A DNA stretch of 64,000 nt from Candidatus Omnitrophota bacterium. GTDB lineage: Bacteria > Ratteibacteria > UBA8468 > MWAK01. Made by a program: the position numbers and the translations under genes. Location of the stretch: positions 7,440 through 71,439 of the forward strand of contig JBDRQI010000003.1 in the NCBI GenBank assembly GCA_043826355.1, in the 5' to 3' direction. Below, piece by piece: positions 24,582-29,120 of the stretch. Numbering within the stretch: the stretch's first letter is position 1; each line of letters starts with the position of its first letter. Under the pieces are notes generated by a model, which worked only from the letters and a program-made list of their open reading frames with translations, did not search any database and was not told the origin of the DNA.

Positions 24582-25948
24582 CTTATGAAAGAAAAATGGT
24601 CTGGGATGTTTTTTCGGATGCAGAAAAAGGCGCGGCTTTTGATTTTGCTTCGGGTTACCGTCAGTTTATTTCCGACGTCAAGACCGAAAAAGAAACGGTA
24701 ATCTGGACAAAAAAGAAGGCGGAAAATAAAGGGTTTTGCGAACTGGCCGAATCCCGAAAAAGCAAAAAAATATACCTGGCCAATCGTTCTTCCGCGCTAG
24801 CCCTGGCAATCATGGGAAAACGTCCCATTCAAGACGGCGTTCGCATCATCATCTCTCATATTGATGCGCCGCGGCTTGACCTGAAACCCCAGCCGTTGCT
24901 TGAAGAAGAGGGTTTGAGTTTTTTGAAAACCCATTATTACGGCGGCATTAAAAAATACCAGTGGGTAACCAAACCGTTAAGCCTGCACGGCACCGTGGTT
25001 CTTAAGAGCGGCGTCAAACAGGAAATCGTTATCGGTGAAAAAGAGAACGAACCGGTCCTGACCGTTACCGATCTGCTGCCGCACCTGGCTAAAGAGCAGA
25101 TGGAAAAGAAGATGTCGGACGCTGTAGACGGCGAATCACTAAATCTTTTGATCGCTTCGCTGCCGGTCCCGAAAGAAAAAGGTAAAAAAGCGCCGCAAGC
25201 CAAAAACCGCGTAAAAGAAGCGGTTTTAAAGTTACTCTACCGGACTTACGGGATAAAAGAAGAAGATTTAATCAGCGCGGAATTAGCCGCGGTGCCGGCC
25301 GGCCCGGCCCGGGAGTTGGGTTTTGACCGCAGTCTTATCCTGGGGTACGGACAGGATGACCGCATCTGCGCCTACGCTTCCTTTCAGGCTTTTCTGGAAG
25401 CGGGCGAACCGGAATATACCAGCGTTTGCCTGCTGGTTGACAAAGAAGAGATCGGCAGTGAAGGAACCAGCAGCGCCCAATCCGGATTTTTGAATTTTTT
25501 TCTGTGCCGATTGGCCGGAATCACGGAAACGGAACTGGCCCGTTCGTTCGTTAAATCATACGCGGTCAGCGCGGACGTAAATGCCGGACTTGACCCGAGT
25601 TACCGGGAGGTAAATGAGGCGCAAAATGCCCCACGGTTGGGTTACGGTACGGTTTTAACTAAATATACCGGGCACGGCGGAAAATTCGGAAGCAGCGAAG
25701 CCGGCGCAGATTACGTGGCTTACCTGCGGCGTCTCTTTGAAAAACACAAGGTGGTCTGGCAGACCGGTGAATTAGGGAAGATTGATAAGGGCGGCGGCGG
25801 AACGGTGGCAAAATATCTGACCCGTCAAAATATCGAATGCATTGACATCGGACCGGCGTTGCTGTCAATGCATTCGCCTTACGAAGTGAGTCATAAGGGC
25901 GACCTTTACTGCACCTACAAGGGTTTCCTGGCTTTTTATAAGGGGTAG
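24563..25948 (+). CDS. M18-family (aspartyl) aminopeptidase
   Basis: 461 aa; …[13 protein letters not shown]…, …[13 protein letters not shown]…, …SMHSPYEV… zinc-aminopeptidase blocks. Confidence 0.7.
25897..25943. repeat. Direct repeat copy A (3' end of aminopeptidase CDS) bracketing the beta-galactosidase gene
   Basis: gggcgacctttactgcacctacaagggtttcctggctttttataagg; imperfect copy B at 29033-29120 split by a terminator hairpin. Confidence 0.6.
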
Positions 25949-25961
25949 ATATGCGATAACC

Positions 25962-28900
25962 ATGAAAAGACCAGTAAGTGATTGGGAAAATCCTCGGATC
26001 CTCCATCAAAATCGCAGACAGCCGCACGCTTCACTCATTCCCTTTGCAGACGAGGAGTCCGCTTTAAAAGGCAACCGTTCTCTTTCTCCGCACTTTTATC
26101 TTCTGAACGGCTTGTGGGATTTCAAGTACTGTAAATCTCCGGTTGAGGTTCCGGAAAAATGGGAGACCATTCCGGTACCAAGCCACTGGCAGATGCACGG
26201 TTACGGTCGGCCGCATTACAGCAATAGCAACTACCCTTTTCCGATAGACCCGCCGTACGTACCCGACGAAAATCCGGTCGGTATTTACCGTCGCACATTC
26301 ACTCTGCCGGCCTCCTGGAAAGGCAGGCGCATCTTTTTGAATTTTGAGGGGGTGGATTCCGCCTTTTACGTTTCGGTCAATGGAAAATCTGCCGGTTTCA
26401 GCAAGGGGAGCCGTCTTCCCGCGGAATTTGATATTACCGGTTTTTTGCATCAAGAAAAAAATCTGCTTGCCGTCCAGGTATTCCAGTGGTCGGACGGCAG
26501 TTACCTGGAAGACCAGGATATGTGGCGTCTGAGTGGTATCTTTCGGGACGTCTATCTCCTGGCGGTGCCGGAGCTGAACCTGACTGATGTCGCAGTCCGC
26601 ACGGAACTTGACGTTAACTACGTCAATGCAACCCTCCGCGTGTCTTTCAAACTTCACAACCACGGCTTACTTGCCGTCCAAGGGTTTATTGTTACCAGCC
26701 GGCTCATCGACCCCAGCGGAGAGACGGTCTTCAAAAAAGAGGTGAACGTACCCGGTTTCTGCAAATCCGGCGTTGACACAGTCGTCACATTGAAAGAGCA
26801 GGTAAAGAATCCGTTCAAGTGGAACGCCGAAAAACCGCACCTTTACACTTTTTTAGCCGGCCTTTCCGACCCTTCCGGAAAAGTCCTGGAAATGAAAGCC
26901 GTTAAAGTCGGTTTCCGCAAAGTGGAGGTAACAGACAGGCAATTATTCGTAAACGGCGTTTCCGTGAAACTGAAGGGTGTAAACCGTCACGAATTCCACC
27001 CGGACTTCGGCCGCGCCGTCCCCCTTTCCCTGATGGAGCAGGATGTTCGGCTTATGAAACAGAACAACATCAATACCGTGCGCACTTCCCATTACACCAA
27101 CGATACCCGCTGGCTGGACCTCTGCGACCACTACGGAATCTACGTAATAGACGAGGCAGACCTTGAAACTCATGGCTTCGGATATATCGCTCCGGACATA
27201 CCTGCCAGAGTGCCGCTCTGGAAAGAGGCGTTTGTTGACCGGGCGGTCCGAATGGTGGAACGCGACAAGAACCATCCCTCAATCATCATCTGGTCTTTGG
27301 GCAATGAGGCGGGTTACGGACCCAATCACGACGCTATGGCCAAAGCCATCCGGAAATTGGACCCGACCCGCCCCATCCATTACGAGAGAGCCGAAACCGC
27401 AGCCGTGGTGGATATTGTCAGCGTGATGTATCCGGAGGTTGAATCTTTGAAGGAAGAAGGCGAAAAAAAATACGAACCCCGGCCTTTTTTCATGTGCGAA
27501 TACGCCCACGCCATGGGCAACGGCCCCGGAAATCTCAAGGAGTATTGGGAAGCCATCTGGAAGCACCCGCGCCTCATCGGCGGCTGCATCTGGGAGTGGA
27601 TTGACCTTGGCATCCGGCAGTTTACCGCGGGCGGAAAGGAATGGTTCGCCTACGGCGGGGATTTCGGCGATAAACCGAATGACGGTAACTTCTGTATTGA
27701 CGGTCTTGTTTTTCCGGACAGGCAACCGCACAGCGGTCTAATTGAGTATAAACAAGTTATTTCCCCTGTTTCCGTGGAGCCGGTTGACCTCTCGGCCGGG
27801 AAAATATCCATCACCAATCGTTACGATTTTATCTCGCTGGAACATCTTGAAGGCGCCTGGCAGATTTTGGAAGACGATAAAGTTATCGCCGAAGGGAATC
27901 TGCCGCACTTGGATATTCCGGCCAAGAGAAAGAAAATTTTAAAATTGTTTGATTCCCTGCCGGCCGGAAAACCCGGCGCCGAATACCGCCTGAATTGCCG
28001 TTTTTTCTTTAAAAACGATACGGCCTGGGCAGAAAAGGGTCACGAAGTGGGAACGTATCAATTTACCCTGCCGGTTTCGGTTCCGGCCGGACCTCTGGTA
28101 AAGACCGCGGGAATGCCGAAAACGAAGGTTACCGAAAATGGCAGGCAACTTAGTATTTTCGGAAAGGATTTTTCCATTGTTTTTGACCGGGCGACCGGAC
28201 AGATTGCGGACTGGGAGTATCTAGGGAAGCCGCTGGTTCTTGAAGGTCCGAAACTCCAGTTATGGCGCGCGCCGACTGATAATGACGTTCATATTGCAAA
28301 GAAGTGGCGGGAATCAGGTCTTGACCGTCTTCAACACCGCCTTACGGAGTTTAACGTCGTAAAAAGGGACAATTTCGTGCAGGTCAAGACCTCTTTTGTG
28401 CTGGCCGCCTCCAGTCTTCACCCTGTTTGCACCGTGGTTTATCAATATACCGTTTATGGTTCCGCCGATGTTTTGATTGAGACTTGTTTTACCCCCACCG
28501 GTGAGCTTCCTTACTTGCCGCGGCTGGGATTGGAGGTGGTTTTGCCAGATTCCTACAACCGGTTTTCCTGGTACGGACGGGGTCCTCACGAAAACTACGT
28601 TGACCGGAAGGAGAGCGCTCTGGTGGGATTATATTCCGGAAGTGTTCGCGACCAGTACGTTCCTTACCTAAAACCGCAGGAGAATGGCAATAAAACAGAC
28701 GTCCGCTGGGCAGCCGTGCTGGATAAAAAAGGCAAGGGGTTGCTGGCTGTCGGTAGGCCGGTTTTAGAAGTAAGCGTACATCATTTTACCGTGGAAGACT
28801 TAACCAACACCGCCCATGAATACCAGTTAAAGCCGTGCCGTAAAACCATTCTCCATCTGGATTACCGGCAGGGAGGTTTGGGCAGCAACAGTTGCGGGCC

Positions 28901-29033
28901 TGAGCCGATGATAAAGTACCGGCTTATGCCGGAAAAGGCGACTTTTACGATGCGTCTGAGGCCGTTTTCAAAAGAAAAACAAGACCTGATGCAGTTGAGC
29001 AAACAGCGGTTACCGTTCTCAGGAAAGATATAG
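25962..29033 (+). CDS. lacZ: Beta-galactosidase, glycoside hydrolase family 2
   Basis: 1023 aa; N-terminal …[17 protein letters not shown]…, GH2 catalytic blocks …NRHEFHP…, …WSLGNE…, …CEYAHAMGN…; C-terminal domain 5. Confidence 0.85.
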
Positions 29034-29120
29034 GGCGACCTTTACGGAAAATGCCAGAATGCCCCGTCCTGTGGACGGGGTTCTTCACTGCAACTATACG
29101 GGTTTCCTGGCTTTTTACAT
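29033..29120. repeat. Direct repeat copy B (degenerate duplicate of aminopeptidase 3' end) with embedded terminator
   Basis: gggcgaccttta[…hairpin…]ctgcaactatacgggtttcctggctttttacataaag aligns with copy A with ~4 mismatches. Confidence 0.6.
29062..29086 (+). terminator. Rho-independent terminator after lacZ
   Basis: CCCCGTCC-tgt-GGACGGGG stem followed by TTCTTC. Confidence 0.5.

Follow-up and report, generated by a model that had tools for sequence, protein, structure and literature searches.

A beta-galactosidase gene inserted at a partly duplicated aminopeptidase 3′ end in a Candidatus Omnitrophota genome

The lacZ locus

We analysed a stretch of 64,000 nucleotides from a Candidatus Omnitrophota bacterium (NCBI GenBank assembly GCA_043826355.1, contig JBDRQI010000003.1, positions 7,440 to 71,439 of the forward strand), here called the window, in which a gene for a predicted glycoside hydrolase family 2 (GH2) beta-galactosidase of the LacZ type lies between an M18 aminopeptidase gene and the convergent gene tilS (Table 1). 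An initial annotation had described this lacZ gene as bracketed by imperfect 47-nt direct repeats of the aminopeptidase 3′ end, and as a cassette brought there by recombination across a short homology or attachment site. Comparison with related genomes revealed that lacZ and a relic of the aminopeptidase 3′ end form an insertion. The sequence that recombined was more likely a 13-mer, TATAAGGGGTAGA, which is shared with the leader of the nearest lacZ relative, with the repeat as a by-product.

The product assignment is based on five Pfam domains (Glyco_hydro_2_N, Glyco_hydro_2, Glyco_hydro_2_C, LacZ_4 and Bgal_small_N) and on LacZ-type NCBIfam models, which match at E=0 to 1e-297, slightly under their equivalog cut-offs. 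Moreover, the motifs SLGNE449, with the acid/base Glu, and CE513YAHAMG, with the nucleophile Glu, are invariant in seven homologues. The aminopeptidase coding sequence (CDS) ends in ...AGGGCGACCTTTACTGCACCTACAAGGGTTTCCTGGCTTTTTATAAGGGGTAG, and its best homologues are found on contigs of Candidatus Omnitrophota/Ratteibacteria metagenome-assembled genomes (MAGs; 88–94% amino acid identity). The gene coordinates (25948 and 25962) bear out that lacZ starts 13 nt past the aminopeptidase stop, and it is the sole gene enclosed by the two repeat copies.

Table 1. Features of the aminopeptidase–lacZ–tilS interval (window positions).
Feature	Coordinates	Strand	Remarks
M18 aminopeptidase gene (apeB-like)	24563..25948	+	intact, 461 aa; Pfam Peptidase_M18 2.4e-89; NCBIfam NF002600 624 bits vs cut-off 529
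Copy 1, duplicated target segment (~41 nt)	25896..25936	+	inside the aminopeptidase CDS; matches 29032–29045 and 29089–29115 with 3 mismatches in 41
13-mer TATAAGGGGTAGA	25937..25949	+	final three aminopeptidase codons with the stop; also conserved lacZ leader; putative left recombination joint
Spacer with two-codon mini-ORF ATG CGA TAA (25951–25959)	25950..25961	+	ahead of the lacZ ATG; read from sequence
GH2 LacZ-type beta-galactosidase gene (predicted)	25962..29033	+	intact, 1023 aa; five LacZ domains in Pfam
Copy 2, first part AGGGCGACCTTTAC	29032..29045	+	14/14 identical to 25896–25909; overlaps the lacZ TAG stop; marks the right junction
43-nt interruption of copy 2	29046..29088	+	bounded by CTTTAC/CTTCAC; holds hairpin 29061–29081
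Copy 2, second part, relic aminopeptidase 3′ end	29089..29127	+	relic stop TAA 29125–29127; runs on into the native intergenic spacer before tilS
tilS (tRNA lysidine synthetase)	29133..30266	-	convergent, right flank of the gap; Pfam ATP_bind_3; TIGR02432 174 bits vs cut-off 93.6

A duplicated aminopeptidase 3′ end on both sides of lacZ

The aminopeptidase 3′ end (25896–25948, copy 1) reappears directly after the lacZ stop at 29032–29127 (copy 2), where it is interrupted by a 43-nt insert bearing a hairpin. We scored the copies formally against random sequence, which the initial annotation had proposed for the downstream copy. Their gapped local alignment reaches 59.4, while 2000 shuffles gave a mean of 16.2 with a standard deviation of 3.5 and a maximum of 32.2. 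The score therefore lies 12 standard deviations over the shuffles, nothing unrelated elsewhere in the window scores above 32, and the recurrence of the gene end at the lacZ stop is confirmed. The segment CTTCACTGCAACTATACGGGTTTCCTGGCTTTTTA at 29083–29117 is identical to 25904–25938 at 31 of 35 positions (89%) and, with the 43-nt insert removed, copy 2 translates in frame as GDLYCNYTGFLAFYIK, followed by the relic stop. The longest exact run common to both copies, the 18-mer GGGTTTCCTGGCTTTTTA, is found at these two places only, and a search of the window for further copies of this 18-mer and of the 14-mer that opens copy 2 found none.

The differences between the copies are unevenly distributed, with 3 in the first 41 nt (93% identity) and 7 in the last 13 nt (Fisher p=0.0008). 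Thus the repeat itself is real, whereas the length of 47 nt given to it is composite: the true duplication comprises ~41 nt. The native aminopeptidase end in relatives that lack lacZ is TAYAAAGGGTAG; the tail of copy 2, TACATAAAGTAAT, agrees at 9 of 13 positions with the native end in one of them (L005; related loci are denoted by L numbers) and at 6 of 13 with the tail of copy 1. Both window copies have GGT TTC at a place where close relatives have GCC TTC or GCT TTT, and apart from GGT TTC for GCC TTC copy 1 equals the sequence of the relatives. Since the lineage-specific codons occur in both copies, both stem from the window lineage, as predicted by a duplication of the target.

A chance similarity, or a chimeric join made during assembly, is an explanation to which we give hardly any weight. 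A join might be suspected in a MAG contig, and an independent contig, L162 from the Logan assembly of SRR26275510, ends inside the hairpin, 36 nt past lacZ. However, this contig independently reproduces the aminopeptidase–lacZ junction and the first 36 nt past the lacZ stop, the flanks are collinear with three relatives (see below), and the alignment score is far beyond that of shuffled sequence. Assembly k-mers are usually longer than 18 nt, and a join through the repeat is unlikely because the longest exact run that the copies have in common is of only this length. Positions 7073–7108 of L162 correspond to window 29034–29069, and the contig breaks off where the hairpin's first arm lies; heterogeneity among strains or a break in coverage at the relic copy may be the cause.

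Unoccupied sites and other cargo in related genomes

Three relatives (L005, L082 and L001) are collinear with the window (82–90% nucleotide identity) up to 25948 and again from 29158–29171, inside tilS. In these genomes the aminopeptidase gene is joined directly to the convergent tilS, 25–70 nt apart, and the segment from 25949 to ~29157, which comprises lacZ and the relic copy, is therefore an insertion. The empty site, which the initial annotation had named as a check, is thus present in three genomes, in support of its proposal that lacZ was inserted at the aminopeptidase 3′ end.

The interval between aminopeptidase gene and tilS, which we sampled in about eight genomes, is variable beyond the presence of lacZ. 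It holds a short-chain dehydrogenase (SDR) gene in L006 and a PEBP gene in L083, and in L002 (9356–9848) the aminopeptidase homology stops nine codons short of the stop (window-equivalent 25918) and is followed by 13 unrelated codons and a convergent open reading frame (ORF) that runs up to the contig end. L002 thus represents a second independent breakpoint within the last 52 nt of the aminopeptidase gene. Duplicates of the aminopeptidase 3′ end were sought beside the cargo in L006, L083 and L002, and none was found.

Several details of these intervals were recorded in addition. The L006 gene (823–1603, minus strand) is of the short-chain dehydrogenase/enoyl-ACP-reductase type, and the aminopeptidase there gains four extra codons (KGQDVI and stop). 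In L083, the PEBP-family gene (1014–1529) lies between the aminopeptidase gene and the apparent tilS end and has an in-frame TAG at 1287–1289, which could indicate a pseudogene, a sequencing error or read-through; a hairpin element, GTCATTCCCGCG...GCGGGAATCC, is located directly past its aminopeptidase stop. For the convergent ORF of L002 no match was found in Pfam, NCBIfam or PDB, and our initial guess of a discoidin/CBM32 domain was dropped for want of support.

A second location of lacZ and a shared leader sequence

Among 8000 scored sequences a single close lacZ homologue was found (P0002, 84% amino acid identity and likewise 1023 aa), the next best reaching 59%. Its locus, L160, places it between folE and a DUF6946 gene, which is followed by an M24 peptidase gene. 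The two lacZ genes are 85.65% identical at the nucleotide level over 25959–29025, and the DNA homology is limited to this stretch plus the exact 13-mer; no wider homology of the flanks was found past the 13-mer (upstream p=0.52, downstream p=0.24). In L160, 4.9 kb (positions 2690–7597) have been inserted between the stop of folE and the start of M24; this insertion contains hairpins resembling repetitive extragenic palindromes (REP), lacZ and the DUF6946 gene. This segment is missing in L163, L164 and L165 (92–93% nucleotide identity) as well as in L166, where folE adjoins the M24 gene directly. Since L163 and L006 share one MAG, L160 belongs to the same clade. lacZ is therefore an accessory gene found in two different slots of two related genomes, each slot being empty in other relatives, and its description as an accessory gene in a housekeeping neighbourhood holds.

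The REP-like hairpins of the L160 insertion are GTCATTGCGAGCG... and GTCATTCCCGCG..., and TAAAA stands at both edges, so that a target duplication would amount to TAAAA at most. A direct repeat of 26/30 around lacZ and the DUF6946 gene (2972–3001 and 7485–7513) was considered as a long target duplication (p ~0.009) and rejected: the empty sites put the true edges at 2690 and 7597, and both repeat copies follow REP-like hairpins, which is why we read it as a dispersed repeat.

The 13-mer is the only sequence besides the gene itself that the two lacZ loci share. It occurs once in the window and once in L160, where it stands exact at 3020–3032 and ends 3 nt before the lacZ ATG (with ACT between), as compared with 12 nt in the window. 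At the left joint the donor leader, as represented by L160, and the native target end form a short near-identity. We read the tail of copy 1 as the lacZ leader, which would have been joined to the target within this near-identity of 12–13 nt. The proposed recombination across a short homology or attachment site is retained as probable in its first half, with the 13-mer as the likelier short homology, and not in its second, a recurring attachment site.

Composition and age

As the initial annotation had regarded lacZ as likely horizontally acquired and had suggested codon usage as a check, we compared its composition with that of the window. The gene has a GC content of 0.516 and, at third codon positions (GC3), of 0.592 (z=1.26, rank 8 of 51); few long genes have a smaller codon-usage distance. 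Neither GC3 nor codon usage revealed a signal of compositional foreignness in the window; the values are typical of it.

At four-fold degenerate sites, the lacZ genes of the window and L160 diverge by 0.24. Core genes gave 0.25 (aminopeptidase, window and L005), 0.22 (aminopeptidase, window and L001), 0.21 (tilS, window and L005), 0.25 (M24, L160 and L166) and 0.14 (M24, L160 and L163). Because the lacZ divergence equals that of core genes within the clade (0.21–0.25), its movement took place within the clade and is not recent. The relic points the same way, since ~10 of its 54 positions have diverged and it has received a 43-nt insert, which together indicate that the insertion event is not recent either. 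Judged by composition and divergence, lacZ appears to have circulated or relocated inside the clade, from a donor that was not compositionally foreign. Of the claimed horizontal acquisition the accessory insertion is thus retained, while a foreign origin finds no signal, the movement being old and within the clade.

With an age of this order, lacZ and both copies might be ancestral, and L005, L082 and L001 might have become empty secondarily by precise deletion between the direct repeats. Repeats of ~40 nt favour such deletions, which leave a single copy that looks like an unoccupied site, and the synonymous divergence of 0.24 shows that lacZ is old in the clade. We nevertheless hold this history to be improbable. 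It requires several independent precise losses, L083 and L006 retain native-looking intergenic sequence together with other genes, and the single copy of the relatives reads GCC TTC, not GGT TTC as in the window. Moreover, an insertion forming the duplication would still be required, so that the timing would change and not the mechanism.

A candidate attachment site and candidate mobile elements

The genes around the site are dnaB, ispD, queD, queC, queE, a gene for an LPG-synthase-type (lysylphosphatidylglycerol) membrane protein, the aminopeptidase gene, lacZ, tilS, fpg, ruvX, folP, cysS and gltX. Integrase or transposase genes were not found, and a Pfam search of the ORFs from 19068 to 35184 gave housekeeping families only, aside from the cargo of the lacZ locus. 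An Rfam search of 25000–36000 returned no RNA family apart from an unrelated sub-threshold match, and there are no tRNAs in the region. Insertion by a transposon or insertion sequence was rejected, as a transposase is absent, the 25 longest pairs include no inverted repeat located at the ends of the insert, and the duplication measures ~41–53 nt instead of 2–15 bp.

Direct repeats that duplicate a target 3′ end are the classical mark of integrase-mediated islands. The 47-mer could accordingly represent the attL and attR sites of a recombinase encoded elsewhere, with lacZ as a mobilisable cassette whose own copy restores the aminopeptidase 3′ end. In favour of this, the window and L002 have independent breakpoints inside the gene's last 52 nt, and related genomes carry lacZ at two different loci. 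We consider such a capture very unlikely all the same. The ~25 kb to each side contain no integrase, and the 47-mer has no other copy in the window, does not flank lacZ in L160 and has no duplicate beside the cargo of L006, L083 and L002, which speaks against a recurring attachment site. Furthermore, both copies bear the substitutions of the recipient lineage itself, and the L160 insertion has at most the TAAAA duplication. Of four features that we tested, the direct repeats at the 3′ end alone are present, while the recombinase, the recurrence of the repeat and the expected substitutions of the copies all fail.

Mechanism of the insertion

We think it probable that lacZ entered this variable gap through a one-off, fairly old event of illegitimate (short-homology) insertion that duplicated part of the target, and that no site-specific element took part. 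At the left joint, the lacZ leader TATAAGGGGTAGA would have met the look-alike native end of the aminopeptidase gene, TAYAAAGGGTAG, and because the joint lies at this resemblance between leader and gene end the aminopeptidase retains its Y-K-G-stop ending. At the right joint, re-entry into the target would have taken place ~52 nt upstream, at 25896, and such an upstream re-entry accounts for the duplication of ~41 nt of the aminopeptidase 3′ end; the original 3′ end would survive, non-coding, as the relic that separates lacZ from tilS. Replicative template switching may have been at work, or ectopic DNA may have annealed at microhomologies. Just as possible is a course in two steps, in which an insertion within the last 17 codons would have been followed by repair with the wild-type allele through one crossover in the leader homology. 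In a later step, a hairpin-bearing piece of 37–43 nt would have been inserted into the relic. The locus shows the features of short-homology recombination, namely a left joint at a short identity between donor and target, the lack of a dedicated site or machinery, and a unique event.

Several points weigh against this explanation. Its mechanism is deduced from one scar, and only one assembly covers the right junction between the hairpin and tilS. The microhomology at the right joint is weak, at most ATA/AG, and neither the exact 14-nt block at the lacZ stop nor the 43-nt hairpin insert is specifically predicted. Alternatively, TATAAGGGGTAGA could derive from the aminopeptidase gene and have been carried with lacZ into the L160 locus, and either direction of movement is possible. 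An identical product would result from a Campbell-type crossover if a sibling strain supplied a circular fragment. Finally, the lacZ lineage occurs in two genomes only, too few to judge recurrence. It is conceivable, if only just, that lacZ is in this clade an ORF-sized mobile cassette, moved between the intergenic slots aminopeptidase/tilS and folE/M24 by machinery encoded elsewhere, whose widely staggered cuts would leave target duplications of ~40–50 nt and whose recognition sequence would include the 13-mer leader.

Of the rival explanations the Campbell-type event is the least unlikely, and we still regard it as rather unlikely. A circularised fragment of a sibling strain, carrying lacZ and ~50 nt of the aminopeptidase 3′ end, would have entered by one homologous crossover in this segment, which would then be duplicated on both sides. 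The order copy 1, insert, copy 2 is exactly what one crossover with a circle produces; the lineage-specific GGT TTC in both copies fits a very close donor, and so does the identity of 93% in the 41-nt part. On the other hand, a donor is required in which lacZ already lies beside the aminopeptidase gene without a relic, and no such genome is present among 166 loci; the origin of the adjacency is merely pushed back by one step. Moreover, the 7/13 difference of the tails and the agreement of copy 1 with the L160 leader are left unexplained, and at ~50 nt the segment is close to the minimum for RecA-dependent exchange.

Relation to known systems

Homology-facilitated illegitimate recombination (HFIR) in natural transformation has reportedly been described by de Vries and Wackernagel (2002), and replicative template switching of the microhomology-mediated break-induced replication (MMBIR) and fork stalling and template switching (FoSTeS) type is ascribed to Hastings et al. 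(2009). In the latter, an insertion copied from an ectopic template is expected, with microhomology at each of the two switches and, upon re-entry upstream of the exit point, a duplication. It can also yield short extra inserts bounded by microhomology, which may be compared with the 43-nt insert and its CTTTAC/CTTCAC borders. Unlike the present case, MMBIR/FoSTeS is known chiefly from rearrangements in eukaryotes and in experiments with E. coli, and it is not demonstrable from an old scar. Integration hotspots between conserved core genes, for their part, are said to have been reported by Oliveira et al. (2017). The aminopeptidase/tilS interval resembles them in holding no cargo, lacZ, an SDR gene, a PEBP gene or the ORF of L002, but differs from them in its single-gene cargo without hallmarks of mobile elements, in a sample of about eight genomes.

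In double illegitimate recombination of the short-patch type (SPDIR), ectopic single strands anneal during replication (bioRxiv 10.1101/2023.11.22.568220). Like SPDIR and HFIR, the lacZ event would have joined foreign or ectopic DNA at a short near-identity without a dedicated recombinase, the joints hug the insert, and it was a one-off without a recurring site. Unlike in SPDIR, whose patches measure tens of nucleotides, 3.1 kb was inserted here. Furthermore, a target duplication of ~41 nt is not a standard outcome, and the long one-sided homologous anchor of HFIR would be found here in the two-step variant only.

The locus shares with tyrosine-integrase islands and prophages at gene 3′ ends the repeats that duplicate the 3′ end, the intact target and the displaced 3′ end beyond the cargo. 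It differs from them in lacking an integrase, in its single-gene cargo and non-recurrent repeat, in the recipient substitutions found in both copies, and in the last 13 nt, which are not duplicated. Direct repeats that duplicate the 3′ end of an intact gene do not alone define the family of integrase islands. With integron cassettes it has in common a promoterless, ORF-sized unit, for lacZ probably expressed from an upstream promoter, whereas an attC-like imperfect palindrome with R/L boxes, intI, attI and an array are all absent; downstream of lacZ there is a relic coding fragment with a simple hairpin, not attC. The arrangement is therefore best read as microhomology-mediated illegitimate recombination in a core-gene hotspot, which mimics an integrase island without being one.

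The case is ordinary in kind: it introduces no new system and settles no open question. It is a well-resolved natural example, from an uncultured phylum, of a promoterless accessory gene wired into a housekeeping operon, and its value lies in the empty site, the second independent lacZ location and a scar that is readable at both junctions. Moreover, a direct repeat that looks like an attachment site may be a composite of target duplication and donor leader, which calls for caution when islands are identified by 3′-end repeats.

Putative expression signals of lacZ

The spacer between the aminopeptidase gene and lacZ would, from its length, be too short to hold a promoter, and a scan of the plus strand from 25500 to 29500 found no promoter-like site. 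As lacZ begins 13 nt past the stop without a promoter of its own, its transcription as part of the aminopeptidase operon is probable. The mini-ORF of the spacer sits between a Shine-Dalgarno-like AAGGGG and the lacZ ATG and starts 5 nt past AAGGGG. L160 lacks 11 nt of the mini-ORF region, and its AAGGGG is located 7 nt 5′ of the lacZ ATG. A role of the mini-ORF in translational coupling is a speculation.

Within the 43-nt interruption of copy 2, the hairpin is predicted by folding to have a GC-rich stem of 9 bp, GCCCCGTCC-TGT-GGACGGGGT, with seven G-C pairs. Both the insert and the hairpin proposed by the initial annotation are present, while the terminator role given to the hairpin is less certain: its tail, TCTTCACTGC, is a weak T run, and a consensus terminator scan made no call. 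The hairpin is a possible terminator between lacZ and the convergent tilS, and as such may limit read-through into tilS. No second copy of the hairpin piece was found in the window, in 162 loci by pattern search or in 1.68 Mb of related loci by blastn.

Candidate dispersed repeats elsewhere in the window

Apart from the lacZ locus, the window contains an imperfect hairpin repeat of ~145 nt (35206–35351), with arms rich in CGCAGAG/CTCTGCG and a DNA fold z-score of -3.97, which recurs at L160 90–219 and L005 5423–5552. The window copy lies upstream of gltX and the L160 copy upstream of ftsH; in L005 the repeat is an additional element located between queD and queC. It looks like a dispersed repeat of the miniature inverted-repeat transposable element (MITE) type; in Rfam only a sub-threshold match to a miRNA precursor was obtained. 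A segment of ~60 nt (38187–38247) matches L166 5368–5427 and 13423–13465 at 88–93% identity, and we read it as a short dispersed repeat or a conserved regulatory element. Furthermore, ~110 nt at 3796–3904 match L005 2222–2330 with 79% identity, in an inverted and non-syntenic position within the otherwise collinear L005.

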